This document shows positions 1 to 64,000 of a stretch of DNA of 64,000 nucleotides, in pieces. Position 1 is the first letter of the stretch. Every line of letters starts with the position of its first letter. The position numbers and the translations under genes are program-made. This DNA comes from a virus. The notes beneath the pieces are model-generated. The model was not told the origin of the DNA. It saw nothing but the letters and a program-made list of their open reading frames with translations, and ran no database searches. The stretch covers positions 7,161-71,160 of the IMG/VR virus record IMGVR_UViG_3300043607_000045; one strand, 5' to 3'.

Positions 1-1
1 G

Positions 2-373
2 GCGGATAATGCCCTCGCGATCGCGCAGCAACCGAGTGTCGGGCCACCGGTGCCGCCGGTCACCGGTCCTGGGGGCGGGCCGCCGATCGGCCCTCCGCCA
101 GGCGACCCGGGCAGCCAGACCAACCCGATCATCGCGATGTCGGCCGACCCGGCGGCGATCGCGGCGTCGGTGCGGCTGAGTCTGCAGTCCTACGGGATCG
201 GCTTCAACCCGAGCGTCGATCAGTACTGGATCGACCATGCCAGCACGGTCGGCCAGTTCTCCAACGGCAAGTGGTACTTGGGCTGGAACGCCTACTGGCA
301 CGCGCGGGCCAACCCCTCGAACACCGGCAGCGCCGACCCGAACCTGGGTGACGAACCGTCCCCCGCCGGGTAA
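2..373 (+). CDS. Virion-associated protein, C-terminal part (5' truncated)
   Basis: Frame is open from position 2; Pro-rich linker then Trp/Tyr-rich domain; lies in the virion module. Confidence 0.7.
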   Translation, partial: ADNALAIAQQPSVGPPVPPVTGPGGGPPIGPPPGDPGSQTNPIIAMSADPAAIAASVRLSLQSYGIGFNPSVDQYWIDHASTVGQFSNGKWYLGWNAYWHARANPSNTGSADPNLGDEPSPAG

Positions 374-391
374 GTGAGCCCGGTTTCGGGG

Positions 392-397
392 TACACT
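392..397 (+). promoter_or_regulatory. Candidate -10 box (TACACT) for a leaderless transcript
   Basis: TACACT lies 7 nt before ATG 405; no SD in the gap. Confidence 0.4.
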
Positions 398-404
398 CCG
401 GCCC

Positions 405-842
405 ATGTCGCCTATCGGGGAGGCCCCGCCGGCGGTGGTGCTCCCCCTTCGACCGACCTACGCCACCCGCGTCCTCCCGCCCGCCGAGTGGGACCGCCTG
501 CAGGTGCTCCCCTTTGCGGCCAATGGCCTGCCCGACCCGGATAGCACGATCATCTTCGTCGACGAGACTCCTGGAGGTGAGATCGTCGGCATCTGGGGGA
601 TCTTCCTGCAGCCGATGCTGGATGGGCTGTGGGTGCATCCGGACCACCGCTCGACGATTGTCGCCGGCCAGCTGCTCAAGGCGGTGAAGACCTTCATGCT
701 GGAGACCGGGGTGCGCGCCGCCTTCACCCAGATCTCCGAGCCCGGGGTGATGACCCTGGCGCACAAAGCGGGGTTTACCCGCGCGCCCGGCGATCTCTGG
801 TGGCTGCAGGTGCAGCCGGATCCCCCCACCGAGGAGCCCTAA
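405..842 (+). CDS. GNAT-fold acetyltransferase (podovirus gp13-like position)
   Basis: LWVHPDHRS...AGQLL motif A and KAGF motif B; sits just before the ejection proteins. Confidence 0.75.
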   Translation: MSPIGEAPPAVVLPLRPTYATRVLPPAEWDRLQVLPFAANGLPDPDSTIIFVDETPGGEIVGIWGIFLQPMLDGLWVHPDHRSTIVAGQLLKAVKTFMLETGVRAAFTQISEPGVMTLAHKAGFTRAPGDLWWLQVQPDPPTEEP

Positions 843-3594: not shown

Positions 3595-6417
3595 ATGGAT
3601 CCCCTGGACGTCGGGGGACCGCCGCCGGCAGCCGACACGCCGACGGCCGCGCCGGCCGCGACGACCCCCACCGCGACTGCCTCGCGCCCCGCCACCCTGC
3701 AGGACATCGCCGAGGCGGAAGCCAAGAAGCAGGGCGTCGACCCGCGCCTGGTGCACGCCGTCATCAATACCGAGTCGAGCTGGAACCCGGCGGCGAAGTC
3801 GCCCAAGGGCGCCATGGGGCTGATGCAGCTGATGCCGGCGACCGCGGCGAAGTGGAAGGTCGACCCGGCCGACCCGGTGCAGAACATCCGCGGCGGGGTG
3901 AGCGAGCTGAAGGCGCTGTCGGTCGAGCACAAGGGCGACGTCACGATGATGCTGCGGCGCTACAACGGATCCCCCAAGGCGACGCCCGAGGCGACTCAGC
4001 CCTATGTCGACAAAGTCCTCGGCCAGCTCAAACCCTCGACACCGCCGACCCCCGGTGAGGACCCCGCGGCGCCGGCCCCGACCGTCGGCACGCCCCCGCC
4101 GGCTGCCCCTGAAGGCTGGGGCGCCTGGGCCCTCCGGCACGGCAAAGATCTGGCCAGCGCCTTCGATCCGCGCACCCCCGCCGGTCGTCAGACGCTGGCC
4201 GGGGCTGCCGGCGCCGCGGGAGCGACGGCCCTGGTCACCGCCACCGCTCCCGTCTCGCTCCCCGTGCTCGGCCTGGGTGCCGCCACGGCGGGCATCCTGG
4301 GCGCCGCCGGTGGTGGCATGTTGGCGGAGACCGGAGAGCAGCTGGCAGGGACCAAACCGCCCAGCGGCGAGGCCGCGCTGACCGCCGGCGCGACCCAGGG
4401 CGCCCAGGAGGCCGTCGGGCACGGGCTGATGTGGCCGGTGCAGGCGGTCGGCCGGCGACTGATCGGCGGACGGGTGGGGCGCTACGCCGCCGAGGCGATC
4501 GGCGCGGCGAAGACGGCGACCCTCAGCCGGCTGCAGACGGCCCTGGATAGCTCGACCGCACTCCTCCGGACCACCAAGGCCACGGCGAAGGAGGCGAACG
4601 CCCAAGCGGCGACCTCAACCAGGGGGATGGTCACCTCGGCCGCGAATAAGGCCCGCCAGGGCGTCCAGGCGGCCTCCGACCTCGGCGAGGGCCGAGTGGG
4701 CGTCGCCAAAGCCAACGCCGCGCAGGGCGTGACTGCAGCGGAGGAATCCGCCGTCTCGGGCGAGGCCGCCGCGCGCGCGCCGTACGAGAAGGTGGTCGGC
4801 GCCCCGCCCCCCTCCGCCGCCTCAGCCGGGCGGGCGGCCAACGAGGTCATCCAGACCGGTGGCGCGGCTCAGGCGCGCGACCTCGCCGGGAAGGCTGTGG
4901 ATGAGGCGGCACGCTCGGGCCCGGACGTCGACATCACCCAGCTCAAGGCGGAGGCGCAGAAGGTGATCGAGGGGCAGATCCGGCCGCCCGAGGCGAGCTT
5001 CCCGCGGAAGGTCGACGCCGGCGCGACTGATGAGGCGGTGACGGCCGCCACCGGGATGTCCCCCGAGGCGATCGCCGAGCTGCGCACCAGCGGCGCGACC
5101 GACCCAGCGGCCGCCAGCCGGCTCAAACAGATCACCGATGCGGTCGGGAGCGCCCAGGGCGAGGCCGGCCAGGAGAACCTCAAGCACCCGGCGATGGGGA
5201 TCCTCAACCGGATCATGAACGCCGGCGACTCGGTCCCCTTCCATGACGCGCACCTCTGGAAGGTCGAACTGGACAACGCGATCCGCAACACGCGCGACCA
5301 GACGGTGAAGTCGCAGGTCTCGGCCCTGACCCAGAAGTTCACCGGATCCCTCCGCTCCGCGCTGCGCGACGCCGGCCACGCCCCCTATGAGGCGGCGACC
5401 GCGGCCTACGCGAAGATCGCTCCGCTCTACACCAAGGGGCACGCCGTCCGGCTGCGCAAGCTGGCGGTCGAGGAGCCCGAGTCGATCGTCCGGCTGCTCA
5501 ACCCGGCGCAACCGACCAAGGCGAAGATGCTGGTCGACCTGCTCACGACCCAGGCGGCCGAGGGGGGCGACGCGGCCGGCGGGAAAGCCGCGCTCGAAGC
5601 GGTGCAGTCCGCCTGGGTTCGCAAGAAGGTGATCGACGGCGGGATCGAGAAGCTCACCGATCGCATCGACAAGATCCCCCCAGAGTTCCGCACTGCCTTC
5701 CTCAACGATCCGAAGGCCAAGGCGGTCCTCGACAACCTGAAGCTGATGTCGACCGCGTACAAGACCGCGGTGCTGACGGGTGAGAAAGGCGTCGAGACAG
5801 CGACCACCACCGGCGCCGGGCGGGTCGGCGCGGTGAAGGAACTCGGCGCGCAGCGGGTCGGCGCCGTCCGGGAAGCGGGCCAGCAGAGCGTCCAGGCGGC
5901 CAGGACCGCGCGCGAGGGGATCCTCAGTCAGACGCGCCAGGCCGGCGCCGCCCAGGTCGAGCAGGCCGCCGGTGGCGTGCAGCCGGCACGCGCGGCGCTC
6001 CGAGCCGGGGTGAAAGACTTCCGCGGCCAGGAGAGCACGCTCGCCCGCTCCTCGCTGGGCCGCTCGATGGTGCCCGGCGCGGCCGCGGCGACCGGCGCCG
6101 ATGTCCTGCGCGCGATGGCGCTCGGGCCGCATTCCATCTGGGGCGGTCTCTCGATCATCCGGATCCTCCACGGGCCCACCGCAAACGACCTGGTGCACTA
6201 CGCGGCCGCGTCGCCGGCTGGCACGCGCGCCTTCGTCAAGGCAATGACCTCCTCCACGCCGGGGCTCGCGCTGGCGGATCTGGTCCGCACCAGTGGGATC
6301 TTGGAGGAAGGGAAGCGAGTCGGGTCGCAGGCGGGATCCGCCGTGAAGTCGCGCGTCACCGGTGCGGCGCCCCCACCTCCAGCGGCTCAAGAGGTGGGAG
6401 CGCCGCCGCCGCGCTAG
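3595..6417 (+). CDS. Internal virion/ejection protein 3 with N-terminal SLT lytic transglycosylase domain
   Basis: INTESSWNPAAKSPKGAMGLMQLMP and YNG SLT motifs; Gly/Ala hydrophobic segment; long helical body. Confidence 0.88.
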   Translation: MDPLDVGGPPPAADTPTAAPAATTPTATASRPATLQDIAEAEAKKQGVDPRLVHAVINTESSWNPAAKSPKGAMGLMQLMPATAAKWKVDPADPVQNIRGGVSELKALSVEHKGDVTMMLRRYNGSPKATPEATQPYVDKVLGQLKPSTPPTPGEDPAAPAPTVGTPPPAAPEGWGAWALRHGKDLASAFDPRTPAGRQTLAGAAGAAGATALVTATAPVSLPVLGLGAATAGILGAAGGGMLAETGEQLAGTKPPSGEAALTAGATQGAQEAVGHGLMWPVQAVGRRLIGGRVGRYAAEAIGAAKTATLSRLQTALDSSTALLRTTKATAKEANAQAATSTRGMVTSAANKARQGVQAASDLGEGRVGVAKANAAQGVTAAEESAVSGEAAARAPYEKVVGAPPPSAASAGRAANEVIQTGGAAQARDLAGKAVDEAARSGPDVDITQLKAEAQKVIEGQIRPPEASFPRKVDAGATDEAVTAATGMSPEAIAELRTSGATDPAAASRLKQITDAVGSAQGEAGQENLKHPAMGILNRIMNAGDSVPFHDAHLWKVELDNAIRNTRDQTVKSQVSALTQKFTGSLRSALRDAGHAPYEAATAAYAKIAPLYTKGHAVRLRKLAVEEPESIVRLLNPAQPTKAKMLVDLLTTQAAEGGDAAGGKAALEAVQSAWVRKKVIDGGIEKLTDRIDKIPPEFRTAFLNDPKAKAVLDNLKLMSTAYKTAVLTGEKGVETATTTGAGRVGAVKELGAQRVGAVREAGQQSVQAARTAREGILSQTRQAGAAQVEQAAGGVQPARAALRAGVKDFRGQESTLARSSLGRSMVPGAAAATGADVLRAMALGPHSIWGGLSIIRILHGPTANDLVHYAAASPAGTRAFVKAMTSSTPGLALADLVRTSGILEEGKRVGSQAGSAVKSRVTGAAPPPPAAQEVGAPPPR

Positions 6418-6914
6418 ACCTGCTCGGTCGGCTGCCCGAAGGTGAAGCCGGCGCCCACCGCCTGGCCACCCGAGATCGTGAAGTCCTCGGCCGCCGTGAT
6501 CGTCACCACGCCGTCGCCCAGGTCCGCATCACCCGCCCAGCGCACCTGCGCCGACCCGGCCGCCACCGCCTTGACCGTGACGCCCAGCTCGTTGGCGGGA
6601 TCCGCCGTCACCGTGACCACGGCCTCGTCCGACGAGGTGAACACCGAGGTGCCCGGCTGGACCGGAGCCGGCTGGCCCTTCTTGTCGATCGGCTGAATGG
6701 TACCCGAGACCTGCTGTGAATCGCTCATGTTCGTCATGTGAGGCACTCCTGTATGTGAGGGAAGATCTTGCTCCTGAATGGGTCCCAGAAGCCAGAGGAT
6801 CAGCGGGAGCCGTCGGGGCGCCCGCTTGTGGTCGACGGTGATCACCGTCTGATGGTCGCGAATCTGGATCGTCGTCGGCCGGCAGCCGGTGTCGATGACA
6901 AGGGGATCACACAT
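6414..6914 (-). CDS. Ig-like (beta-sandwich) protein; second in-frame start at 6737
   Basis: TAATG-coupled ATG at 6914; AGGAG SD ahead of ATG 6737; FTSSDEAVVTV...GSAQV pattern resembles a Big_2-type domain. Confidence 0.65.
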   Translation of the reverse strand: MCDPLVIDTGCRPTTIQIRDHQTVITVDHKRAPRRLPLILWLLGPIQEQDLPSHTGVPHMTNMSDSQQVSGTIQPIDKKGQPAPVQPGTSVFTSSDEAVVTVTADPANELGVTVKAVAAGSAQVRWAGDADLGDGVVTITAAEDFTISGGQAVGAGFTFGQPTEQV

Positions 6915-7249
6915 TAGAACACCGTCAGGGGCCGAGATTGGGTCGTCCGCGCGTCGCACCCTCGGCCATCGTGCGCGGCGATGAAGAGGACGTAGTCGCC
7001 GCGGACGCGGGGCACGGCGAACCCGATCGCACGGACAAACCGCAGCTCGGCGCCGGTGATCTCGCCGACCACCTGGGTCCCGAGCTGGACCTGGATCCGG
7101 GTCACCGGGGCGCCGCTCAGTACCTGCACGTCGACCCGCCCTTGCGCGCCCACTGCGACTGACGCCGTATAGCCGCTCACCACGATCGTCAGCGGATCAC
7201 CTGGAGTCCCGTTGGGGCAGCCGCTGCCTGCCCCGGGTGTGAGAAAGGG
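6914..7249 (-). CDS. Ig-like C-terminal extension reached by a probable -1 ribosomal frameshift from the upstream gene
   Basis: Protein-like frame with no good start of its own; overlaps the upstream gene from the slippery site C_CCT_TTC at 7249-7243. Confidence 0.6.
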   Translation of the reverse strand, partial: PFLTPGAGSGCPNGTPGDPLTIVVSGYTASVAVGAQGRVDVQVLSGAPVTRIQVQLGTQVVGEITGAELRFVRAIGFAVPRVRGDYVLFIAAHDGRGCDARTTQSRPLTVF

Positions 7250-7632
7250 GGGATGGTGTCGAAGGCTTCGGGCGAATTGATCCCAGACCCATTGACCCAG
7301 CGCAGCGAGCCTGTGTAGAGCGTTGGTCCAAAGGGCAATGACGCCAGCGGTCCCGTCCCCGGATCGGTATAGATACATGCCTTCCCTGGCGTGGCCGGAT
7401 CATCGGCCACGATCCGTGTGGGGTTGACGGTCGAGGGCGTGCCGGTGGGCAGCGCCTGGTTGCAGACGAACCCCGCGCCCCCGATTGGGATGGTGGTCTG
7501 CGTCCCGACGGCGACCGGCGGGGTCGTGTTGGTGTAGACCTGGAAGATCCCGCTGGTGATGGTCTGGGCGTCAGCGGCCGCGGCGAAGCTGCCGAGGGTG
7601 AGCGCCAACACCATGATCCGCAAGCTGTGCAT
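7189..7632 (-). CDS. Secreted protein with a Sec signal peptide
   Basis: MHSLRIMVLALTLGSFAAAADA-Q with an AxA cleavage site; Thr/Pro/Gly beta-rich mature part; TACACT box just upstream. Confidence 0.75.
   Translation of the reverse strand: MHSLRIMVLALTLGSFAAAADAQTITSGIFQVYTNTTPPVAVGTQTTIPIGGAGFVCNQALPTGTPSTVNPTRIVADDPATPGKACIYTDPGTGPLASLPFGPTLYTGSLRWVNGSGINSPEAFDTIPPFSHPGQAAAAPTGLQVIR
7214..7249 (-). promoter_or_regulatory. -1 programmed frameshift signal (slippery heptamer plus 3' stem-loop)
   Basis: In-frame X_XXY_YYZ heptamer C_CCT_TTC, then 8 nt, then stem GGGGCAG/CTGCCCC with a 7 nt loop. Confidence 0.65.
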
Positions 7633-7658
7633 GATGCCCGGTAGTGTAGTCGATCTCT

Positions 7659-10600
7659 TCAGACCGCGCGTTGTAAATCGTCGAAGTCTTCCTCGTCCTC
7701 TGGCTCGACCGGCCGCACCGTGTCCTCGACCGCGTTCCAGGCGGTACCGACCAGATCCTCGGTGTCCTGCCAGTTCATGCCGGCTTTCGCGGCGACGCCG
7801 ATCGTCAGATGCGTCCCGAGTCCCCAGGCGGCCGGTAGAGGCTGCTCGATAATCGGCCGCTGCATTTCCAGGCTGACCTTCTCGCACACCCGGTCCCAGC
7901 TGCGGAAGGGGACCTCGAAGAGCAGTGAGTCGTGGATCGGCGCGCGCAGCGGGGTCCGGCCGTAGTAGGCGTCGCCGATGTAGCTCGGGCTGTCGTGGTC
8001 GGCGAGCAGGCGCAGCTCCACCTCTTTGAGGTCGCCGGCGGCGATGCTCTGGGGGAAGAGCGCGATCGCGCGATTGGCGTCCGGGCCGCGCGAGAGACGG
8101 AAGGGGATCCCGGAGATGTAGGTGATCGGCGCCGCCTGCCCGGCGCGCTGGGCCATCGCGAGCAATCGCAGCTCCTGCGCCCGGGTCAGCCGCTTGTAAG
8201 CGTAGATGCTCCAGAACCAGTGCTTGTACTGGAACGGGTGCCCGACCACGCTCCCCGCCACGCCCAGGGTCGGCGCGGTGAAGCTGTAGGGATCCGCGCC
8301 GCCCAGGTAGTGCTGCCTGGCCGCGGTGTCCATCACCACCTGCTGAAAGATTCGCACGCTGGGGAAGTACTGAAACATGAACTCGACCATCTCGGTCGCC
8401 GACTTCTGAGTCGGGTAGAGATGGGGCCAGGTGTACTGCAGGCCGATCGGCGTCTGGCCGTAGAGCACCCCATAGACCGTGTGCTTCATCTGATCGTAGA
8501 GCAGGGTGCCGGCCTTCTTCTTGATCGTCTTGAGGTGCGCGGCGATGTCCTTGTCGGGGGCCTTCAGGTCGGGCGCATCCTTCAGCCGCTGCGAGATCAG
8601 GTAGGAGTGGATCCCCAGGCGCGCGATCCGCATCAGGAAGGGATCCCGCGCGCACCAGCCGGTCTGCGATGCCTCGATCGCCGAGAAGTCGACCTCCAGC
8701 AGGCGGGATCCCCCGACCAGCCCCGGCGCCTGGCCGGCCCAGGCGGGGATCTCCTGATCCGCCACAACGCAGCGCCGAAACCCGGCCGCCAGTCCTTCAG
8801 GGCCACCCTTGTCGGCGACGACGTTGGTGATGTTGGGATCCACATACGAGAGCCTCATCATGGAGGGTCGGAAGGTGGGGACCGGGTGGAGCCGATCCTC
8901 GCTATCCAGCCGGCGCGCGGTCCCCTCGACGTAGGTCCCCTTTACTTTGACGACGGCTCGGTAGTCGAGGAGGTGTCGGTAGAAGGGATCCTCGGTGGTG
9001 CGACTGAGTCGGATGAGGGTTTCGCGGTCGGTGCTCTCCCCGCCTTTACTCTTTTTGGATCTCCCGGGCTTGTGCTTGCGGGCTTTGATGTAGGCGAGCA
9101 CTTGCTGCCAGGAGTCCGGGTTGAACGGCTCTTGCCAGAACCAGCGTGTAACTGAGGCAACGCCCAGTACAAGCTGTGAATCGCGTCGGCCAGGGCGATC
9201 TGCCCCGCCTGCACCTGGATCATCGCCTGGGAGATCTTCGCAACGATGGCGTCGAGGGACGTCAACGGCGCTGCAGGTGGTGCAGCTCCAGACTTCCTTG
9301 AGGGTGATGCGTTCGAGGAGGCGCGCCTTGGCATACAGCTCCTGCTTGATCTCGGCGACGGGACGACCGGCGCGCGGCTTCCCTTTACGGGTGAAGGCAG
9401 TCGCTTTCACATGGAGGACGTTGTCGAGCGGCCGTTTGACCAGCCCACCCTTGGGCGTCAGCGGACAGATCGCCTCGGGCACACAGAGCTGGATCGCCTG
9501 CATCGAGGCGCGCGCCTTCTCAGCGAGCTGCTGCTTGAAGATCTCCAGGCGCTGGCGATCTATTTTGACTCCGACTAGCTGCGCCGGGCGGAGCACCTCG
9601 CTGTGCAGCCGGTGGGTGTGGCGCTCGGCGATCGCGTATTGCCCGGTCGCGATCAGATCCCGGATCAGGCCGAAGCCGATCCGGTGGTTCTGCATCCCGT
9701 CGGCGGCGCCATAGAGCCCGGGATCACTCTGGGCTTTGTGCTTCCAGGGACCGTAGGTGGAGTAGAACGGGGCCCAGAAGCCGAGGCCCAGCGGGATGTC
9801 GGACTGGAGCACCTTGGCGTACCACATCAGATCGACGACCTTCGACGACTCGCTCTCTAGGAGCCCGCCGCCTCTCACCTGGCGAATGAAGTCGTACTCC
9901 CGGTTCCACATCCAGATGTCGCCGGGACTCGCGTAGAGCCGGCGCAGCTGCTCGCGGTAGCCCTCACCCTCGGGCACCGTGATACCTTCATCCGGATGAC
10001 ACGCCACGTTCTGCCGAATGATCTGGAAACTCCGGTCCTCCGTCGTCAGTTCCCCTTCACTCTTGCCACCAGCCTTGTCTGGAGTCTCGACGTCGCTGGA
10101 GATGGGGTACGCCTGGGGATCCTGCTGGCGCGCTGCGACGACCTGGTCGACCCACGCCGTGAACCAGTCCAGCGGGGGATCAATGATCAGCGTCCCCGGG
10201 TCCACCGGCTTCCCGCTATCGCGCGCGATCTCGGCCTGACGTAGATCCCAGAGCACCGTCCCAATGAGGTTGGTCGCGCCGCGCTGCAGGAATGACGGGT
10301 GATAGGTCGGCACCACCCAGAAGCGATCCCCCGGCTCGCGCAGGATCGCGCCGTGGAAGTCCTGGATCCGGATGTGCTTGTGCGACTCCAGGTGCATCAC
10401 CCGCTTGAGCGCCGTCCCGCCCATCGTGACCACGACCTGGGATCCCGCGGCCAGGGTCTCCTTCTCGGAGTAGCAGCAATGCGCTAGGGCGCCGTAGTAC
10501 CAGGGCGCGCGCTCGTCGAACCAGTCATTCGGCGGCTGGCAGCGGATGCAGTTGTCGATGCGGAACGCCTCGCGCTTCCAGCCGAGGAGAGTGAGCAGGC

Positions 10601-10781: not shown

Positions 10782-11231
10782 CTACCGCTGGAGCGCCAGG
10801 GCCAGGGTCGCCGCGGCGTAGGCGGCCGCCTCGGGATGGGTGCGGAGCCGATGCCCAGCGACGTTGAGGATCCGGATCTCGAAGGTAGCGAGCCAGCTCC
10901 GGAGGGTCTGCGACAGCGGGTTGACCAGGACCGCCTTACCGTAGTCCTCGACCGCGCGCAACGTGCAGTCTCGCCCGGGGCTCTTGTGCTCGCCGAACCA
11001 TACGGTCCCGTCTGCGATCCGCACGTTGTGCCGGGTGCGCAGCCGGTAGCCGGCGAAGGTGCACGCGGTCAGCCCGAAGTGATCCCGCAGCAGCTCGGGG
11101 TTGGGGCCGGCGTCGGTGTGGTAGCCGAGCGGCGCCATGCCGCCCGTTTTGTAGCCCAGCTCGAAGGCGACCCGCAGCGCGACCTGATCCACCCCCGTCT
11201 GGCCGCCCGAGATCACCTGCTCCAGGATCAT
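10782..11231 (-). CDS. SLOG-superfamily protein (circularly permuted YpsA / MoCo-carrier-like)
   Basis: VISGGQTGVDQVAL, RTRHNVRIADGT, ILNVAGHR motifs; ATGA coupling. Confidence 0.85.
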   Translation of the reverse strand: MILEQVISGGQTGVDQVALRVAFELGYKTGGMAPLGYHTDAGPNPELLRDHFGLTACTFAGYRLRTRHNVRIADGTVWFGEHKSPGRDCTLRAVEDYGKAVLVNPLSQTLRSWLATFEIRILNVAGHRLRTHPEAAAYAAATLALALQR

Positions 11232-11740
11232 ACGCCGGTGTCCAGATCCTGATCCGTGACGCGCGTCCGAAGGCGATCGTAGCGCTCCTGCAGCGTCTCG
11301 CCCGTGTTCGTGATCACCGCCTGGACCTTGTCGTCCCAGCACTCGATCATCTGCCAGTCCTTGGTCGCCGTGATCGGGAGGATCTCCCCGAGGTGTTCGA
11401 GGCACCACGCGGCGATCAGCTGGCGCTGGCCGGCGGCGAAGGCTTTGTCGTCGCGCGCCTGACTACTGAGCCGGTTGTTGCAGCCGACCCGCGCGGTGAA
11501 GATCCGCACGTCCTTGCCCTCCGCCAGCCAGCCCTTCACCCGCGCGACCATCGCGGGGATCGGCTTACCCGCGACCCAGACCTGTTGCGGACCCCCGTCC
11601 GGATCCCACTCCGCCAGGGTCCCGTCGAAGTCGACCGCGATCCACCGCTCGGGATGCGGGAGTACGCGATGCTGCTCGCACTGGTGATCCGCCCCACGGT
11701 CACAGCCGCAGGGTTGCGTGCTCCGGTCGTTTCTCACCAC
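11228..11740 (-). CDS. HAD-superfamily phosphatase
   Basis: IAVDFDGTL motif I, FTAR motif II, K...WDD motif IV. Confidence 0.85.
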   Translation of the reverse strand: MVRNDRSTQPCGCDRGADHQCEQHRVLPHPERWIAVDFDGTLAEWDPDGGPQQVWVAGKPIPAMVARVKGWLAEGKDVRIFTARVGCNNRLSSQARDDKAFAAGQRQLIAAWCLEHLGEILPITATKDWQMIECWDDKVQAVITNTGETLQERYDRLRTRVTDQDLDTGV

Positions 11741-12021
11741 CGCCTCCCTCCAAATCCTTCCCCTCGCCGGCTCGCCCGATTGGTGCGTGCCGCCTCGATG
11801 TTGCCCACCGCCGCCTTCTGCGCCGGGCTCACGCTATGGGTGCGCTCGACCGTGCTCTGGATCTCGCGCAGTGTGTCCTCGGCCCAGCGATACTGCTCGC
11901 TCTGGAGCAGCTCCTCGATCTCCACGCTGAACTTGTACCAGTCCTGATCCCGGGGATCAGAAGGTTTCGGACTCTGAATCGGCTGGTCGTTCAGGTGCAG
12001 TTCCTCGGGCGTCTTCCCCAT
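11734..12021 (-). CDS. Hypothetical protein
   Basis: GGAGGA SD; codon bias; overlaps both neighbours. Confidence 0.65.
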   Translation of the reverse strand: MGKTPEELHLNDQPIQSPKPSDPRDQDWYKFSVEIEELLQSEQYRWAEDTLREIQSTVERTHSVSPAQKAAVGNIEAARTNRASRRGEGFGGRRW

Positions 12022-12991
12022 CGAGTTCCTCCGTCACTTGTGCATAGCGCTTGAAGAGATCGGGCCCCAGTGCCTCGGCGATCGTCTGAGGCTGCTTGAC
12101 CTCGGTGAGGTTCATCATGCGCTGGTTCAGCTCCTCGATCGACGGGGCCGTCTCCTGGGCTTTACTCCATGCCTGCAGCGCCGGGGTCGTCGCCGACCCG
12201 TCATCTTTGGCGTCGGGCTCGCTGAACCCCCCACCGAACGGGATCACAAACCGCTCCTGGTTGACCGGCCCGCCCCACTTCTTCGCATAATACGCGCGGC
12301 TCTGGTGCTCGATCGCGCCCCGGATCCGCTCGGCCTCGGGCGCCGGCAGCAGCTTGAGGGTCTGACTCGCCAGATGCAAGTAGGGCAGGTTCACCGAGAA
12401 GATCCGGGATCCTTCCTTGGCGAGCAGCAGCCGGCGGTGGTAGTCCAGATCCTCACAGAACGCCGGGATGAAGTGCTCGTCGAACTGAAAGCGGTGATGG
12501 CAGTCGCGCGAGATTAGGAAGCAGGAGAAGTCGGGGCCCCCGCGCGCGTGGCTGAACGCCATCCACTCGGCCGTCCCCAGGGTGGTGTAGTCGCGCGTGG
12601 GATCGAACTCGGCCTCGCGCACGCCGACCGCGGTGACAAAGAGCGCGTTCTGCTGGTTGAGGACGGTGTGGAGGATCTGCACCGTGCGCGGGTGCAGTCG
12701 AACATCGTTGTTGACCACCAGCGCGACGTCGCCGCCCGAGTGCCACACCGTCTCCAGGGCGAGATTCCAGCTCGCGCTCAGACTCGGGAGTGGGGGCTGG
12801 TGGTGCCACACAAAGATCCGGGAGTCCTGCTCGGCGAGGCGCTCCAGTCGATCGCGGAAGGCGTCATCCACCCCCTGGTTGATCACCAGGATCCGGGTCG
12901 GGACCGACTGCGCTAGGAGATCAGAGATCGCGGCCTCGGTCATCGCGGGGCCGGCCAGGACGGGCATCACACACCAGATCGGATCAGTCAT
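11957..12991 (-). CDS. Glycosyltransferase, GT2/GT-A fold
   Basis: VMPV, SWNLA, VVNNDV (DxD region), FSCFLI, FDEHF...EDLDY. Confidence 0.88.
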   Translation of the reverse strand: MTDPIWCVMPVLAGPAMTEAAISDLLAQSVPTRILVINQGVDDAFRDRLERLAEQDSRIFVWHHQPPLPSLSASWNLALETVWHSGGDVALVVNNDVRLHPRTVQILHTVLNQQNALFVTAVGVREAEFDPTRDYTTLGTAEWMAFSHARGGPDFSCFLISRDCHHRFQFDEHFIPAFCEDLDYHRRLLLAKEGSRIFSVNLPYLHLASQTLKLLPAPEAERIRGAIEHQSRAYYAKKWGGPVNQERFVIPFGGGFSEPDAKDDGSATTPALQAWSKAQETAPSIEELNQRMMNLTEVKQPQTIAEALGPDLFKRYAQVTEELDGEDARGTAPERPADSESETF

Positions 12992-13040
12992 CGGTCGAGA
13001 CTCCTAGAGAAGGTGACGCGCGGAAGGAGCCGACACTCTA

Positions 13041-13349
13041 TCACGGATTCCGCTTGCCGACGACCGCGCGCAGTCCAAGAAATAATAGATCCCAGGCGCC
13101 CCGCGCGACGTTGTCGAAGTCGGGGATCTGCCCTGGCTCACTATCCACCAGGAGTGCGGCATCGTCGGTGAGCGCGAGCCGGCCTTTCTTCCAGGGCTGA
13201 TCGGTTGTGCCCGGCAGGGTCTTCGAGAAGATCGCCTCGTAGAGCGTACCGACGGATGACCCGCCGGCGTTGGCGATCCAGCCGACGCCGAGCAGGCGAT
13301 CGTGCGCGGGGCCGCGGGCGCTGACCATCTCCAAGGTGACGCGGATCAT
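13041..13349 (-). CDS. Hypothetical protein
   Basis: ATGA coupling; codon bias. Confidence 0.65.
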   Translation of the reverse strand: MIRVTLEMVSARGPAHDRLLGVGWIANAGGSSVGTLYEAIFSKTLPGTTDQPWKKGRLALTDDAALLVDSEPGQIPDFDNVARGAWDLLFLGLRAVVGKRNP

Positions 13350-13792
13350 ATAGTTACCACCGTAAATCGGTCATCCAGGATCTCCGCCAAGATCGGCTTG
13401 ACCTCGTGCCACTTCCGCTGGCCGTTGCCGCAGCCGGGTCTGGGCAGTAGCACGGATCCCCACTCCATCTTATCGGTCAGCACCACCAGCTCGATCGCGC
13501 TCTGCTTGATCAGTGCCAGATCCGCGCGCATATTCCAGTCGTGCTTCACTGGGAAGGTCACCAGCCAGGGATCCGCCCCGCTCGGCCCTCTATCCCTCAA
13601 GATCGCGACGTGGTTGCCTTCGCGCTGGAGGATCTTCCCGAGGTTGACCTGCAGGAAAGGATACTTCTCACACGCCTGCTTGGCGCAGCCGCGCCCCATC
13701 ACCGCCCGGCCGTTGCTCTTGACGGATCCGTTGGTGGTGATGCAGCGCGCGTCGGCGAGGGTCTCCCAGAGGTCGAGGAGATCTTCACGCAT
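13346..13792 (-). CDS. Macrodomain protein (ADP-ribose processing, DarG/TARG1-like)
   Basis: ITTNG...VMGRGCA, FPVKHDW, LPRPGCGNG.. W motifs. Confidence 0.85.
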   Translation of the reverse strand: MREDLLDLWETLADARCITTNGSVKSNGRAVMGRGCAKQACEKYPFLQVNLGKILQREGNHVAILRDRGPSGADPWLVTFPVKHDWNMRADLALIKQSAIELVVLTDKMEWGSVLLPRPGCGNGQRKWHEVKPILAEILDDRFTVVTI

Positions 13793-14375
13793 GGGGGATC
13801 TCCTCTCGCCAGTACCAGAACTCGTAGCCGGGGGTAACCTCCGGCCCGTAGATCAGCACACAGCAGTCCTTCGGGTAGAGCGGCGGCTGCGTATAGCAGG
13901 CCGGCGTCTTCCCGTCCTTCAGGGTCGCCGGGTCGATCGTGGTCGCCCAATCAGGGATGAAGCAGAGCCGCCCGTTGAGCAGCCAGACCTGCGCCTTGCC
14001 GTGGACCCAGTCGCCCCACCAGTCGCTCCCGACGCCGGCCGGCACCAGCAGCGCGCTCCGGGTCCCGAGCTGCGCCTCCGCCCACGCCTTCTCCACCCAG
14101 GGCTCGATCTTCTCAAACGGCATGTTGCACCAGACCACCCCGCCGATCGGCACCTCCCACTGGGGATCCAGCGGATTCCAGGGCGTCAGCAGACCGTTCT
14201 CCTCCACCGTGTAGTAGAGGTCGGCGACCGCGTTGGTGGGGTCGGCGGCCGCGTCGAGGCTGAACCCCGGGATCTGGAGCTTGTGCTTCACCGCCACCAG
14301 CAGGCGCGCCTCGGTCTGGTAGTCCTGCTTCGAGGATCCCGGCTTCTGCGCCGGCATCTTGCGACGGGGGCTCAT
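13785..14375 (-). CDS. Phage N6-adenine DNA methyltransferase (phage Dam-like family)
   Basis: FSLDAAA, NGLLTPW, VWCNMPF (NPPY/F variant), WVEKA, LLVPA, GRLCF. Confidence 0.85.
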   Translation of the reverse strand: MSPRRKMPAQKPGSSKQDYQTEARLLVAVKHKLQIPGFSLDAAADPTNAVADLYYTVEENGLLTPWNPLDPQWEVPIGGVVWCNMPFEKIEPWVEKAWAEAQLGTRSALLVPAGVGSDWWGDWVHGKAQVWLLNGRLCFIPDWATTIDPATLKDGKTPACYTQPPLYPKDCCVLIYGPEVTPGYEFWYWREEIPHA

Positions 14376-14461
14376 CGCCGAGTCACCTGGGCATAGACAC
14401 CGGCGAGGAGGAAGCACACCCCCGCCCCCACCAGCCGCGCCGCCGGCGGATCTTCACTCAC
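14372..14461 (-). CDS. Small hydrophobic peptide
   Basis: GTG start; MSEDPPARLVGAGVCFLLAGVYAQVTRR; ATGA-coupled to the MTase. Confidence 0.4.
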   Translation of the reverse strand: MSEDPPAARLVGAGVCFLLAGVYAQVTRR

Positions 14462-14630
14462 GCTCCAGATCAGGATCAGGCCGCCCAGGAGGGTCAGGCT
14501 GAGGATCACGACGTTCCGGCCCATAGGGAGTTACCTTTGAACAGACTTCGCAGTACAACCCCCCGGGCTCCCACTTGAGCAGGGAGGGATCTTTGTTCGT
14601 GCAGTGCTCACACCGGATCGGGTCGGCCAT
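14454..14630 (-). CDS. Small zinc-ribbon protein
   Basis: CEHC...CEVC. Confidence 0.55.
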   Translation of the reverse strand: MADPIRCEHCTNKDPSLLKWEPGGLYCEVCSKVTPYGPERRDPQPDPPGRPDPDLERE

Positions 14631-15861: not shown

Positions 15862-15865
15862 GGGG

Positions 15866-16507
15866 CTAGCTCCGTTTCTGGAGACAGAGGGAGGCGAAGG
15901 TGTAGTCGTAGACGTGTGGGCCGTGGTAGGTCCAGTCGGTGCGACCGAGCACGGCGAAGTTATGGCGGATCATCGACACCGCGAGGTCGGTCCAGGTGCG
16001 CTCGGTGAAGATCCGCTTGCGCATCCAGTGGAAGTGAAAGGGATCTGCATTCGAGAGCGGATGGGCGCCGGCCATGTCGCCGTAGTCCATGGTCAGGAAG
16101 AGCAGTCCGCCTGGCGCGACCAGACAGCTCAGATGGTAGAGGAACTGGTCGAGATCGTCGACGTGCTCCAGCACGCTCAGACAGAAGACCGCCGCCCCCA
16201 ACCGCGGGCCGCCCGTCAGAAAGTCGGCGAGCGTATCGCCGTGCAGCTCCTTGGGGTCGATGATCCGCACCTGGTAGGGATCTAGCATGTAGTAGAACGG
16301 GCTGCCGGATCCGCCGACGTCGTAGATCGGCTCCCCGACGCGCGAGGTCTCCGCCCAGAGGTTGTGGGCACGGAGGGCCAGCGCGTACTCCCACCGGCGC
16401 ATCGGGTGCTGCGTAGAGGCGCGCGCGAAGGACTCGTCGACCACCGCTAGCTCGGAGGTGAGCAGGAGGAGGTCGGCCGGGTCGAGCGTCTTGGTCAGGG
16501 GGATCAT
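15866..16507 (-). CDS. Class I SAM-dependent methyltransferase
   Basis: RRWEY, YDVGGSGS, FCLSVLEHV, VAPGGLLFLT. Confidence 0.85.
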   Translation of the reverse strand: MIPLTKTLDPADLLLLTSELAVVDESFARASTQHPMRRWEYALALRAHNLWAETSRVGEPIYDVGGSGSPFYYMLDPYQVRIIDPKELHGDTLADFLTGGPRLGAAVFCLSVLEHVDDLDQFLYHLSCLVAPGGLLFLTMDYGDMAGAHPLSNADPFHFHWMRKRIFTERTWTDLAVSMIRHNFAVLGRTDWTYHGPHVYDYTFASLCLQKRS

Positions 16508-20442: not shown

Positions 20443-20603
20443 CGGAAGATCTCCTCGCCCTCGGGCAGGGTGGCCACGATCGTGATCGTGAGGATCGATC
20501 GGGGGATCTCCCCCACCGACTCGGTCAGCTTCTCGTACGCCTGATCCTCGGTCTCCGCCTCGACGTAGATCTTGTCGCCCTGGGCCGCGAACTCGAAGAT
20601 CAC
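20439..20603 (-). CDS. Small acidic hypothetical protein
   Basis: Read by hand: MIFEFAAQGDKIYVEAETEDQAYEKL...; GTGA and ATGA coupling. Confidence 0.65.
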   Translation of the reverse strand: MIFEFAAQGDKIYVEAETEDQAYEKLTESVGEIPRSILTITIVATLPEGEEIFR

Positions 20604-60865: not shown

Positions 60866-60874
60866 GGGCACACC

Positions 60875-61321
60875 ATGAACCTTGTAGGCATCTTTCGACG
60901 CACCGCCTCGACGACCCTCAGCGTCGGCAACATCACCGCCGACGCGACTCGGCCGCGGCGGATCGAGTGGTACGACGTCACGGTGGGATCCGAGGCGGCG
61001 GCCGCCGACAATCCCTTCCTCTGGGTGTTCCAGCGCTGCACCACGGCGGGGACCGCGACCGCCCTCACCCTGAACCCAACCGACCCGGCCGACGCCGCGA
61101 CCGAGCAGGACGCGGGCGTCAACCATACGGTCGACCCGACCTATACCGCGAACCTGATCATGCTGGACATCCCGCTCAACCAGCGCTCGACCTTCCGCTG
61201 GATCGCGACCGAGGGTGGGCGGATCATCACGCCGGCGACCGCGTCCAATGGCCTGGGGATCTCGACCCCCACCTCCTCTGCGTTGGCGGTGACGGCGACG
61301 ATCCATGTCAACGAGCGGTAA
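60875..61321 (+). CDS. Virion structural protein (Thr-rich beta-sandwich)
   Basis: GAGG SD; composition. Confidence 0.72.
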   Translation: MNLVGIFRRTASTTLSVGNITADATRPRRIEWYDVTVGSEAAAADNPFLWVFQRCTTAGTATALTLNPTDPADAATEQDAGVNHTVDPTYTANLIMLDIPLNQRSTFRWIATEGGRIITPATASNGLGISTPTSSALAVTATIHVNER

Positions 61322-61616
61322 ACCGATCACCGGGTACGCGCAGACCTTCACCCCGGAGAAGGTCATCGAGCGCGACACGACGACCTGCGGCCATTGCCAG
61401 CGGGTGGTGTTCGTCAAGCCGGGCACCGCCTGCACGGTCTACCTGATCTTCGATCGGGCGAGCTGGTCCTGGAAGGAAGAGGCGGGGGCCTTCTGCCGGC
61501 AGTGTATGCGCCCGGTCTGCCTCGCGCACCGCTGCCTGGATCACTGCCTAGTGTGGGAGAAGCAGCTCGAAGCCAGCGAGGCGCGCGACCGACTGCGCCG
61601 TGCGGTGACGGGCTAG
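61305..61616 (+). CDS. Cys-rich zinc-binding protein
   Basis: CGHC...CRQCMRPVC...C...C. Confidence 0.68.
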   Translation: MSTSGKPITGYAQTFTPEKVIERDTTTCGHCQRVVFVKPGTACTVYLIFDRASWSWKEEAGAFCRQCMRPVCLAHRCLDHCLVWEKQLEASEARDRLRRAVTG

Positions 61617-62716
61617 TGGCTGTCGGCTGGGCCGGCAACCAGGTGATGGACATTGCCACCGGGCACTCGGTCAATTTCCCGCCGGCCGACTACAAAGCCT
61701 CCTGCAAGTTCACCAACACCGCCGGCGTCGACCTGATCATCACCACCCTCTATGCGGTCTGGTTCTACCCAGTCGGGACCCAGGGCGGGATGCACCAGAA
61801 GGGGATCGTCTACTCCGACAACGCGGGCGTACCCGACGCCCTCCTCCACGTCACCGACGAGATCACCTTTATCAACAATAGCGCGGTCGCCATGCCCTTC
61901 TCGACGCCGTGGACATGGACAGCCGGGACCACGCTCTGGCTCGGCGTGATCGCCGACAGCGGCGCGGCGTCGACGCAATTCATCTGCCCGAGCCTCACCG
62001 GGGGGATCCTCTACAACTCGAACAGCTACGCGAGCGGGCCAAGCAACCCGTACGGCACCCCCAGCGTCGCCGACTTCGTCTATGTGATCTGGGCCGAGGG
62101 GTACGATGGATCCAACAAGCTCGGACGCATCTCGATCGGTGGCTTCACTGGAGGAAACTATCTCAAGCTCGACGCGCATTATGAACGGTTCCAGCTCGGA
62201 GGCGTTCCCTCCGCGCCGATGGGCGTGGCAGCGAGCGTCTCGGTCAGCCAGATCCAGGTGTACATCACCGCGACGCTCGGGGGTGTCAATTCGCATTGTG
62301 CGATCTACGCCGACGACGGCGGCGGCAGCGGAACGCCCGGCACCGCGACGCTGCTCGGGGTGTCCAATGCGCTGAGCGCCTTTGTCGCGAACACCTGGCA
62401 CGTCTACACCTTCTCCTCGCCGATCGTCCTAGCGGCAGGGCACTACTGGCTCGCGTTCATCACGGATCTCAGCGGGGGCACGACCAACGTCACCAACTGG
62501 AATGGTGAGCTGTCCTCGGCCGCGGCCGCGCAGACCGACGCGAGCTTCTACACTTGGCGCAACCCGATCACCATCACAGACCCCTTCCTCTCCGATCAGC
62601 GGCCCTTCGGGATCAGCATCTATGCTGACTACACCCTGACGGTCGGACCCGATCAGTTCGTCTTCCCGCAGATCCCGATGATGCCGCGCAGCCGGCGCTC
62701 GGTGGTGCCCTACTAA
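61616..62716 (+). CDS. Tail/receptor-binding-like protein with two tandem beta-sandwich domains
   Basis: TAGTG start; repeated [IV]Y[SA]D..G...LL and W[LT]AG..WL[GA] motifs. Confidence 0.72.
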   Translation: MAVGWAGNQVMDIATGHSVNFPPADYKASCKFTNTAGVDLIITTLYAVWFYPVGTQGGMHQKGIVYSDNAGVPDALLHVTDEITFINNSAVAMPFSTPWTWTAGTTLWLGVIADSGAASTQFICPSLTGGILYNSNSYASGPSNPYGTPSVADFVYVIWAEGYDGSNKLGRISIGGFTGGNYLKLDAHYERFQLGGVPSAPMGVAASVSVSQIQVYITATLGGVNSHCAIYADDGGGSGTPGTATLLGVSNALSAFVANTWHVYTFSSPIVLAAGHYWLAFITDLSGGTTNVTNWNGELSSAAAAQTDASFYTWRNPITITDPFLSDQRPFGISIYADYTLTVGPDQFVFPQIPMMPRSRRSVVPY

Positions 62717-63288
62717 TGGCTCTGGACTGGATCCCCACCTTCCCAAGTCAGGTCCCCCATCGGCGCTTCAAGCAGCCGGGGCTGGTGGTCGGGCCGTTTA
62801 CCGTGTCGGTGATCCCGGTCCCAGTCGTCCCCGGGCTGCTGGCGTTCCAGGCGACCTACCCGAACCAGGTCCCGCACCGCCATAGCCAGGTCGCGCGCAC
62901 CGAGCGGGTGACGCCGACGATGTTCACGGGGGCGATCGCGCCGGTGAGCTGGGCGCCGACCTTCCCCAACCAGGTGCCCCACCGCCACCTCGCGACGGCC
63001 GCGCGCACCACGATCGCCGAGCCGCCGCCCAGCGCCAACGTCGTGATCGGGCAGCAGCTCGCCTGGCAGGCGCGCTACCCGTCGATCGTGCCGCACCGGA
63101 TCCCCCTCCAGCCCGGCGGCGAGACCGCCCCGCCCAATCTCCTCCCGGGGGTGGAGGCGCTGGGCTGCCTGGAGCTGGTCGACGTCACGCTCACGAGCCC
63201 GGCGCTGCTGGAGGAGACCCTGACGGCGCCCACCTTCCTGCACGAGACGCTCGGATCGCCGGCCCTGCTGGATGAGGATCTCTGCTGA
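62716..63288 (+). CDS. Pro-rich repeat protein
   Basis: Four [WF]xx[TR][FY]PxxVPHR repeats and C-terminal 10 aa repeats. Confidence 0.72.
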   Translation: MALDWIPTFPSQVPHRRFKQPGLVVGPFTVSVIPVPVVPGLLAFQATYPNQVPHRHSQVARTERVTPTMFTGAIAPVSWAPTFPNQVPHRHLATAARTTIAEPPPSANVVIGQQLAWQARYPSIVPHRIPLQPGGETAPPNLLPGVEALGCLELVDVTLTSPALLEETLTAPTFLHETLGSPALLDEDLC

Positions 63289-63656
63289 TGACTGAGCTGC
63301 CCCCGATCGACGAGCAGGAGACGGGTCGCTATACCGCCGTCATCGTCGGCAACGACGGGGTGACCCCGCTCCCGGGCGCCGTGCTCTCGACCCTGGTCCT
63401 CACGCTCTATGCGATCAAGGCCGACGGCACCGACCAGGTCATCAACGGCCGCAACAAGCAGGACGTGCTCAACGCCCACGATGTGACGGTGAGCGCCGGC
63501 GGGGTGGTCGTGTGGACGGTGCAGACTCTGGACACCACGCTGGTCGAGGCGATCCCCTTCGAGCGGCACATTGCGCTCTTCGAGTGGACCTGGCCCAGCG
63601 GCGTGGGCAAACATGAAGTGGTGATCGTGGTGCGCAACCTGCGCCGAGTCCCCTAA
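63288..63656 (+). CDS. Virion structural protein (BppU-like beta fold)
   Basis: TGATG coupling; beta-strand pattern. Confidence 0.65.
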   Translation: MTELPPIDEQETGRYTAVIVGNDGVTPLPGAVLSTLVLTLYAIKADGTDQVINGRNKQDVLNAHDVTVSAGGVVVWTVQTLDTTLVEAIPFERHIALFEWTWPSGVGKHEVVIVVRNLRRVP

Positions 63657-64000
63657 TGGCCCTGAAGTTCATCGACTCCTTTGATCACTACCAGACCGCC
63701 GAGCTGTCGGCGAAGTGGACGAACCTCGTGATCGCGCAGGGGATCCGCCCCGGCGTCGGCCGCTGCGGATCGCAGGCCATGGAGATGGGCGGCCCCCCGA
63801 TCGGCGGCGTCGAGAAGGGGATCGCCTTCAACAACATCACGGGGATCCTCGGGTTTGCCATCTACGTAGTAACACAAACCTTCAACCAGACGGTGATCTG
63901 CCACTTCGGATCCGCGCTCGGGTCCAGCGTCCAGGTCTACCTCACGCGCCAGACCGATGGCAGCTTGGCGGCCTGGCGCGCGGATCCCGGCAGCGTGCTC
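63656..64000 (+). CDS. Virion/tail protein, 3' truncated
   Basis: TAATG start MALKFIDSFDHY; frame open to the window end. Confidence 0.72.
   Translation, partial: MALKFIDSFDHYQTAELSAKWTNLVIAQGIRPGVGRCGSQAMEMGGPPIGGVEKGIAFNNITGILGFAIYVVTQTFNQTVICHFGSALGSSVQVYLTRQTDGSLAAWRADPGSVL

Follow-up and report, generated by a model that had tools for sequence, protein, structure and literature searches.

The tetranucleotide GATC, and above all its extension GGATCC, is in strong excess throughout the genome of a complete 71-kb uncultivated soil phage, and the pressure behind this excess acts on the duplex word GATC itself; base composition, protein sequence, and codon usage do not account for it. We analyzed a stretch of 64,000 nucleotides (the window), which comprises bases 7161 to 71160 of one virus record of 71,160 bp (IMG/VR record IMGVR_UViG_3300043607_000045; rated 100% complete). 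The G+C content of the window is 67.4%, and the public runs that contain the sequence are soil and sediment metagenomes. The phage, taken as the whole record, is called G000 below; G and L numbers denote the records and terminase loci of its relatives.

The window holds 1058 GATC sites, about one per 60 bp or 16.6 per kb, where single-base composition predicts 193 and Markov models of first and second order predict 457 and 923, respectively. By the ratio of observed to single-base expectation (5.5 in the window and likewise in the whole genome), GATC is the top of all 256 tetramers. GGATCC occurs 190 times against 21.9 expected (8.7-fold; 211 against 24.3 in the genome; 2.97 per kb), and CGATCG occurs 154 times against 22. 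These counts agree with a sequence-only reading of the same DNA, which had claimed a strong genome-wide excess of GATC and especially of GGATCC; its four hand counts were also reproduced (nine sites in positions 1 to 600, and three counts that appear in Table 2). Inside GATC lie 45% of all AT dinucleotides, and GAT is followed by C at 1058 of its 1478 occurrences. Measured against composition, proteins, or close relatives, the excess amounts to three to five times. CTAG, in turn, is strongly depleted in the window (54 versus 193 expected).

We found that the excess stays when synonymous codons are shuffled within genes. GATC was observed 981 times against 563±14 in the shuffles (z=30), and GGATCC 183 times against 51±6 (z=22.5). 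The genes were called with a crude filter of open reading frames based on G+C at third codon positions, made for this analysis, and the roughly 80 genes called occupy 87% of the record; a second set of 81 genes gave 1001 observed against 575. The excess is present in each codon phase (632, 252, and 97 observed versus 401, 147, and 15). When the proteins of G000 are recoded with the codon usage of GATC-poor relatives, only 386 to 418 sites result, and the relatives' own genes hold 262 to 281. Therefore, the shuffle null is itself inflated.

The sequence-only reading had further proposed that synonymous choices are bent to make the site, and codon contexts with internal controls uphold this. Asp is encoded by GAT at 258 of 444 positions (58%) before C and at 142 of 762 (19%) elsewhere, while His, Asn, Tyr, and Phe, taken as controls, barely shift. 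Before TCN, 78 of 112 Gly codons (70%) are GGA, and elsewhere 92 of 1766 (5%). Of the 898 codons that precede ATC, 642 have G as their last base, compared with 31 to 54% before five other codons that start with A; ATG is the exception in this control, at 67%. The effect reaches the proteins: Ile in G000 stands opposite Val, Leu, or Met in the relative G001 at 239 positions versus 126 in the reverse direction (p=3.5e-9), and control exchanges are symmetric. The shuffles, the codon-context controls, and this shift in Ile together support the claim that GATC is favored as a word. The pressure overrides the preference for particular codons, the neutrality of codon pairs, and even the choice of amino acid, and it acts equally in non-coding DNA (18.1 GATC per kb, versus 16.2 in coding DNA).

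The pressure is also symmetric, works site by site and independently of position, prefers GGATCC and CGATCG, and is opposed by protein constraint. Compared with independence of the two flanks, the palindromic forms are favored (GGATCC 190 versus 141, CGATCG 154 versus 97) and the mixed forms are depleted (CGATCC 69 versus 118, GGATCG 68 versus 115). Density rises as gene conservation falls, from 14.4 GATC per kb in core genes through 17.2 in accessory genes to 19.6 in orphan genes. Words that differ from GATC at an outer position fall below the synonymous shuffle (ratios of 0.59 for AATC/GATT, 0.53 for TATC/GATA, and 0.82 for CATC/GATG), and those that differ at an inner position do not (0.95 for GGTC/GACC and 1.04 for GCTC/GAGC). 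The most frequent 8-mers of the genome are GGATCCCC (84 copies, 14-fold) and CGGATCCC (70 copies); among palindromic 8-mers, GGGATCCC (34), GCGATCGC (28), and CGGATCCG (23) lead, with none dominant.

Along the genome the sites are spread as if at random. All 32 bins of 2 kb hold 17 to 50 GATC, no called gene falls below 6.5 per kb, and the coefficient of variation of the gaps (0.997) matches random placement (0.991±0.031). The spacing test showed no clusters or periodicity. The sequence-only reading had suggested a role in packaging, repair, or further modification; none is indicated by such Poisson-spread, unclustered sites, nor does this spacing point to a function at one particular site (an origin or pac site, for instance). 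One spot is dense in GGATCC (Table 2), with two overlapping matches to a pattern of three GGATCC where 0.02 are expected.

An origin of the excess in high G+C, codon usage, or crude gene calls could draw on the second-order Markov ratio, which is only 1.15, and on the ratios of 2.3 to 2.5 that high-GC genomes show generally (a bacterial genome and the Gordonia phage Samman98, both described below). The Markov ratio, however, is low since the signal also inflates the counts of GAT and ATC. Relatives of equal G+C carry 4.3 to 4.5 GATC per kb versus 16.6 in G000, and the non-coding DNA of G000, where gene calls play no part, is 4 to 5 times denser than theirs. The codon-context tests with internal controls are decisive, and the same syndrome is found at 51% G+C in an unrelated phage (G119, below). 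Synonymous shuffles, the comparison with relatives, and the codon-context controls thus rule this explanation out, and we assign it a negligible probability.

Gain and loss of GATC among relatives

A terminase search of IMG/VR returned 55 related contigs, several of them complete at 68 to 72 kb. We took 16 long records whole; for short loci, the ratio of observed to expected GATC was computed on 4 to 22 kb. Across the 55 terminase loci this ratio runs from 0.9 to 6.5 (Table 1 gives the long records). The comparison with relatives, which the sequence-only reading had proposed as a check, shows the trait to be lineage-specific and labile, a property of the phage lineage and not of G+C or of the whole family. 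Among whole records, GGATCC is enriched in G000 (8.7) and G006 (~8.6) only. GGATCC is absent from G004 (24 expected), which is the record of locus L035, and from L022 and L033. GATC is low or avoided in G001, G002, G005, L030, and L038.

Table 1. GATC in G000 and in long records of its relatives; the shuffle ratio is relative to synonymous shuffles
Record	GATC observed/expected	Shuffle ratio	Remark
G006	6.36	1.64	
G000	5.5	1.74	
G010	4.26	1.62	
G009	3.86	1.68	75% complete
G007	3.8	1.59	
G008	3.79	1.49	
G003	2.99	1.30	
G019, G046, G028	2.9	1.38-1.42	
G049	2.68	1.29	
G004	2.46	1.21	
G056	1.95	1.20	
G036	1.77	1.16	
G005	1.51	0.98	
G002	1.45	0.94	
G001	1.43	0.82	z=-4.3 (slight avoidance)

The low state of G001 looks derived. 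In a terminase tree of 45 rows (44 full-length loci plus G000; L046 was left out for stop codons, as were 10 partial or odd-length loci), G000 is sister to L001, which lies within G006, and G001 (locus L002) comes next. G001 is nested in a clade of 13 rows whose other members stand at GATC ratios of 3.4 to 6.2. In alignments of orthologues, 51 of 535 GATC sites of G000 are also GATC in G001; at the others G001 has GACC (59), CATC (54), GATT (30), GCTC (26), CCTC (23), or CGTC (21), among other words. This variety excludes a single mutational bias. We then considered sites of the terminase gene that are common to G000 and/or L001 and to at least 30% of outgroups: 13 of them are missing from G001, which keeps 9. 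In the alignment of the large terminase, more than 170 columns have GATC in one or more of 25 family members, and G000 itself has 32. Thus, density is kept while positions change, and the trait moves in both directions.

G001 has lost its sites with its replication and packaging proteins kept. Compared with those of G000, its polymerase (69% identity), helicase (69%), terminase (67%), and portal and capsid proteins (76 to 85%) are well conserved, and therefore these proteins do not need GATC sites. We found no gene that is present in all GATC-rich relatives and in no GATC-poor one.

The sequence-only reading had also called for a comparison with the host, and we could make it for a candidate phylum. 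The capsid gene of G000 matches one 3.3-kb contig in one metagenome-assembled genome (MAG) of the Gemmatimonadota, the only hit among 401 genomes of the phylum searched. In a 264-kb sample of this MAG, the ratio of observed to expected GATC is 2.3. Asp is GAT before C at a frequency of 0.45 versus 0.25 elsewhere, with His, Asn, and Tyr behaving alike, and the codon before ATC ends in G at 0.41 versus 0.36 to 0.43; there is no GATC-specific codon context. All 61 Gemmatimonadota genomes examined are low in GGATCC, with 0.09 to 0.72 per kb versus 2.97 in G000, and this holds without the one unpublished genome among them. CCTAGG, the reversed control pattern, is 10 to 100 times rarer than GGATCC in all 61. 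So far as this candidate phylum goes, then, the bias of G000 is not seen on the host side, and these data speak against inheritance from the host.

Other GATC-rich phages

An excess of this kind was first described in the B3 mycobacteriophages, where GATC and GGATCC are over-represented uniformly across the genome, a fact for which the consulted portion of that report gives no explanation (Siranosian et al. 2015, PMC4841201). The B3 phage Pipefish resembles G000 in its ~69-kb genome, its ~67% G+C, and its uniform excess of both words (PMC4841201, same portion). We remeasured Pipefish and found 826 GATC (observed/expected 3.96) and 107 GGATCC (4.52); Asp is GAT at 0.34 before C versus 0.10 elsewhere, and G precedes ATC at 0.64. 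G000 shares the features of the B3 type, with GATC raised about fourfold or more, GGATCC more than fourfold, and the excess genome-wide, and with ratios of 5.5 and 8.7 it is the more extreme. The two phages differ further in that G000 has a Dam-family enzyme and none was found in Pipefish, and the family of G000 shows graded states from avoidance to excess. Identity with the B3 mycobacteriophages (Pipefishvirus) was rejected: 0 of 81 G000 proteins match Pipefish at E<=1e-3, and the parts of the window that were searched gave no DNA match to the collection of phage records (below). G000 is a more extreme case of the B3 excess and not a relative of B3.

GATC is counter-selected in enterobacterial phages. 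The classical expectation for phages is the avoidance of palindromes and restriction sites (work cited within PMC4841201 and PMC4687349). Relatives of the G001 type fit it, whereas in G000 the sign is reversed. Over-representation is treated as no more than a minor class in the portion of PMC4687349 consulted, and GATC is the commonest N6-methyladenine motif of gut phages in a study whose consulted portion does not address site density (PMC10711547). In the main texts of the literature on GATC and GGATCC over-representation in phages, supplementary tables aside, only PMC4841201 describes such an excess.

The syndrome recurs elsewhere. When IMG/VR was scanned for stretches of 72 bp that hold three GGATCC, at least 80 loci matched, and among the matches listed at least five unrelated loci have at least 1.5 GGATCC per kb and a GATC ratio of at least 3, at a G+C of 46 to 63%. 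One of them, G119, is a complete 85-kb record of 51% G+C in which GATC is the top tetramer (3.38) and evenly spread and GGATCC is 5.9-fold enriched. G120 and G121 are similar, and the excess of G117 is partly regional. No convincing gene common to G000 and the other rich phages was found in the five contigs searched; the weak matches were a circularly permuted YpsA-like protein (29%), one of 39 amino acids, and a sugar C-methyltransferase in G117. Single hexamers that contain GATC are at zero in some genomes (AGATCT in G119, CGATCG in G121, TGATCA in G118, and GGATCC in G004). These gaps look like footprints of specific restriction systems, and their occurrence in GATC-rich genomes would therefore mean that restriction pressure and GATC enrichment act side by side.

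Some other GATC-reading protein could be responsible, such as a primase, nickase, or condensing or packaging factor of phage or host, with selection for the density of its binding sites. The preference for palindromic 6-mers suggests a dimeric reader, and the trait recurs in unrelated phages without a common methyltransferase. However, G001 lost the sites with its polymerase, helicase, terminase, portal, and capsid retained, no gene follows the trait among relatives, nothing is shared with Pipefish and only three weak or unrelated matches with the five rich contigs, and the spacing is irregular. We regard such a reader as improbable.

Another possibility is that the bias is inherited: G000 would have drifted to the oligonucleotide usage or repair spectrum of a GATC/GGATCC-rich host, its own enzyme being incidental or acquired for protection. 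A trait that is labile and graded across the family is what host switches would give. G009, G119, and Pipefish are enriched with no phage methyltransferase found in them (see below), the densest genes are the orphans, which are presumably young, and the 6-mer-specific purges in G004, G119, G121, and G118 point to host restriction. On the other hand, the sole host clue is one 3.3-kb contig in a single Gemmatimonadota genome, the MAG lacks the codon context, and its phylum is uniformly low in GGATCC. The B3 phages have a laboratory host that lacks Dam, and phages of other B subclusters show no enrichment on it (PMC4841201, as far as the consulted portion goes). We consider host inheritance possible but rather unlikely.

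A Dam-family methyltransferase and the proposed methylation of GATC

The sequence-only reading had placed an adenine methyltransferase next to a glycan island, and the gene is there: a predicted member of PF05869 adjoins sugar-modification genes (Table 2). The public gene call makes it 190 amino acids (13785-14357). It passes the PF05869 cut-off (60.2 versus 28.1 bits) and matches phrog_111, "DNA methyltransferase" (E=2e-27), and it falls under the NCBIfam TIGR01712 equivalog cut-off (52.7 versus 97.05 bits). It is like the PF05869/TIGR01712 phage Dam proteins (the Stx-phage and Gordonia-phage "DNA methylase") in being a small orphan enzyme of the early region, at 27 to 36% identity. Its motif IV reads NMPF, outside the pattern (D/N/S)PP(Y/F/W), where six aligned homologues have NPPY or NPPF. 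Among the 120 closest database proteins this motif is NPPF in 65, NPEF in 37, NPPY in 10, NMEF in 4, and NMPF in 2; the NPEF/NMEF/NMPF branch takes up 43 of the 120, with 50 to 67% identity within it. Judged from these alignments, the enzyme belongs to a conserved branch of PF05869 with a non-canonical catalytic loop. N(I/L)PY in the Erm and KsgA rRNA adenine methylases is a working precedent for N-x-P-F. A search by sequence found no homologue of solved structure.

We then compared methyltransferases across the family, using seven profile families plus motif scans, which novel enzymes can escape. G000, G008, and G010 encode enzymes of phrog_111, and G003 and G007 a different small enzyme, of phrog_799. 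An MT-A70 enzyme is present in G004, and PF01555 and cytosine-5 enzymes, but not phrog_111, in G001; G002, G005, G036, and G049 have none of these. Ten genomes are at least 99% complete, and the four of them that carry either phrog_111 or phrog_799 (5.5, 3.8, 3.79, and 2.99) rank above the six without (2.68 to 1.43). The metagenome contig L303, which is syntenic with G000 (polymerase 82% and neighboring genes 49 to 69% identical), keeps the enzyme at 55% identity and has ratios of 5.83 for GATC and 7.81 for GGATCC. By synteny and identity, the Dam-family enzyme is co-inherited within the GATC/GGATCC-rich sub-lineage.

This co-inheritance and the rank association inside the family are the reasons for the reading that we prefer, to which we give a probability of about 0.4: adenine methylation of GATC makes site density matter, and in the sub-lineage of G000 the phage's own variant enzyme is involved. 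On this view, the phage DNA would carry N6-methyladenine at GATC, put there in this sub-lineage by the variant Dam-family enzyme. Selection would maintain many methylated sites since their marking or protective effect, directed perhaps against host nucleases or defense proteins that bind DNA, would grow with their density. Relatives that meet hosts cutting GATC or GGATCC would lose the sites again.

Several observations weigh against this reading. Protection of sites explains why they are tolerated, not why they are in excess. The motif NMPF is non-canonical, and target specificity cannot be read from 27 to 36% identity to the named phage enzymes. Were the genomes independent, the 4-over-6 ordering would arise by chance once in 210 times, but the ranking takes no account of phylogeny, which leaves about two independent contrasts. 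G003, which has the phrog_799 enzyme, stands barely above its enzyme-free near relatives (2.99 versus 2.68 to 2.89), and methyltransferase-free relatives still have shuffle ratios of 1.16 to 1.42. No such enzyme was found in G009 (3.86), a record that is 75% complete. In the complete G119, an enzyme of the three families searched was not found; in the five rich contigs, of which G119 is one, phrog_111 and PF02086 were found in none and PF01555 in one. Pipefish yielded no methyltransferase to a motif scan and a PF05869 search, the only two screens applied to it, and its DPPF-bearing gp57 is a primase-polymerase/helicase. Conversely, loci with homologous enzymes outside the family are for the most part unenriched: 30 other viral loci have GATC ratios of 0.67 to 4.77 (medians of 1.2 to 3.1 by motif type), 36 of 37 metagenome enzyme loci of at least 4 kb (37 of 80 loci were long enough) lie at 0.59 to 3.74, and Samman98, which has the closest cultured homologue, is at 2.5. 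Finally, homologues of Vsr (PF03852), MutH/Sau3AI (PF02976), and DpnII (PF04556) gave 0 matches in G000 at E<=0.1; a search for the BamHI family (PF02923) was uninformative, its control having matched nothing anywhere. Across phages, a Dam-family enzyme of this kind is neither necessary nor sufficient for GATC excess. The comparison of genomes with and without the enzyme, as the sequence-only reading had outlined it, therefore favors an association inside the family, where the enzyme-bearing genomes are the four richest of ten, and fails to show one among the viral and metagenome loci outside it.

A methyltransferase target can also be raised by repair. CCWGG is over-represented in Escherichia coli through Dcm and very-short-patch repair by Vsr, with its one-off neighbors depleted. 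Adenine methylation yields no deamination mismatch. G000 is like this system in that the presumed target word is raised and one-off neighbors are depleted, and unlike it in having no Vsr homologue and gains beyond one transition. For HIP1 (GCGATCGC) of cyanobacteria, Elhai proposed a model of methylation-dependent repair, as set out in the consulted portions of PMC4390886 and PMC5861425. The sequence-only reading had likened the GATC excess to HIP1, and the likeness is a loose one. On the same sources, HIP1 is a GATC-containing palindrome with G+C flanks that is hyper-abundant across the genome and also inside genes, is accompanied by orphan methyltransferases, and is replaced by other words along lineages. 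What G000 shares is a GATC-cored palindrome and a putative tie to a methyltransferase. However, HIP1 is a quasi-periodic 8-mer of cellular genomes at 15- to 300-fold excess, whereas the phage has 4- to 6-mers at 2- to 9-fold excess with Poisson spacing. G000 has no dominant octamer and no quasi-periodic spacing, and the HIP1 octamer itself, with 28 copies, is rarer than GGGATCCC.

The Elhai model (PMC4390886, consulted portion) leads to a non-adaptive alternative in which methylation-coupled short-patch mismatch repair or biased gene conversion makes GATC and GGATCC out of near-cognate words, and their density, a balance between conversion and constraint, has no function. Such a drive would fit the Poisson spacing, the turnover of positions, the equal strength in non-coding DNA, and the peak of density where constraint is weakest, as well as the tolerance of mildly costly amino-acid changes, the symmetry of the favored words, and the depletion of outer-position neighbors (0.53 to 0.82 of the shuffle). 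However, the phage has no gene of the Vsr or MutH family, so host enzymes would be needed. The gains comprise transitions, transversions, and multi-base codon changes, unlike repair of a single mismatch type, and the inner-position neighbors are undepleted. We think such a drive quite unlikely.

A broader speculation is that saturation with GATC and GGATCC is a recurrent phage strategy or selfish process, arising independently in unrelated lineages (the family of G000, the B3 mycobacteriophages, and contigs of 43 to 63% G+C) and driven by some undescribed mechanism coupled to DNA modification. In G000 the agent would be the NMPF/NPEF branch of Dam enzymes, with S-GATC-S specificity or a chemistry beyond N6-methylation, and density would be a readout of self-marking or of biased repair. 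We offer this as a long shot.

Gene content and meaning of the excess

Table 2 lists the features of the window. The fusion of uracil-DNA glycosylase (UDG) and DNA polymerase (PolA) is conserved across the phage family at 56 to 69% identity, and further recognized genes encode a superfamily 1 helicase, the large terminase, and an SU10-type adaptor. The sugar-modification island occurs in GATC-rich and GATC-poor relatives alike (G001, G002, G008, and G010) and therefore does not track the GATC trait; in a protein atlas, its sugar C-methyltransferase matched mostly viral clusters. The macrodomain protein resembles the DarG antitoxin, a DNA ADP-ribosyl glycohydrolase, and is also found in G002, G008, and L303; it is possibly a counter-defense against DarT-type ADP-ribosylation of DNA. 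Among ten relatives, only G008 also has a YpsA SLOG-family gene. In L037, the terminase match (5556-8639) spans 3084 nucleotides for 763 residues, compared with ~2290 nucleotides elsewhere, which suggests an insertion, possibly an intein or mobile element. No tRNA genes were found in the phage. Among 50,697 deposited phage records, megablast and tblastn searches with parts of the window found none that is closely related, and the matches to this collection were distant ones to the terminase and the UDG/polymerase only. A haloarchaeal virus was ruled out by the content of Asp plus Glu (10.9%) and the median isoelectric point (6.0).

Table 2. Features of the window, in window coordinates (aa, amino acids)
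Feature	Position	Strand	Details
GNAT acetyltransferase among late/tail-side genes	405-842	+	PF00583, E=3e-6
Longest GATC-free stretch, 468 bp	4497-4965 (genome 11657-12125)		random placement predicts 464±80
UDG-PolA fusion polymerase, 1040 aa	7659-10781	-	family-4-like UDG domain, residues 24-170; family A DNA polymerase, residues 550-825
Circularly permuted YpsA SLOG-family protein, 208 aa, adjoining the polymerase gene	10782-11408	-	PF12694, E=2e-24
Sugar-modification island	11957-20442 and 26324-27478	-	GT2, nucleoside diphosphate-hexose C-methyltransferase (zinc ribbon + Methyltransf_14), two FkbM methyltransferases, GT4
Macrodomain protein, 148 aa, directly downstream of the methyltransferase	13346-13792	-	DarG-like, NF048014 E=2e-12 (far under cut-off); phrog_335
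Predicted Dam-family DNA N6-adenine methyltransferase homologue (METHYLTRANSFERASE), 210 aa	13785-14417	-	PF05869 / phrog_111; adjoins the sugar island
Among the densest stretches	20401-20700		15 GATC in 300 bp, the maximum of any 300-bp window
Dense stretch	30361-30660		11 GATC in 300 bp
AAA_25 "repA"-type gene, 954 bp	33698-34651	+	9 GATC
Four GGATCC in 78 bp	44980-45057	+	sole spot in the window with three GGATCC at most 30 bp apart

Phage genomics treats short palindromes as liabilities that restriction purges, and G000 is the extreme opposite. Beyond what was described for B3, we add codon-preserving and context controls, a graded family series that includes a reversal to avoidance, the branch of variant-motif enzymes, and the recurrence of the excess in unrelated phages down to ~50% G+C. 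One phage family spans avoidance (0.9 to 1.5, with GGATCC at 0) to saturation (5.5 to 6.4, with GGATCC at 8.7). Since all of these states are present in it, the unexplained observation in B3 becomes testable by comparison. Close relatives that differ fourfold in GATC density, and also in whether they carry a variant Dam-family enzyme, are a natural experiment on selection, biased repair, and host inheritance. If the density of methylation is indeed what is selected, this would point to a principle of defense or counter-defense that works by dose and not by single sites.

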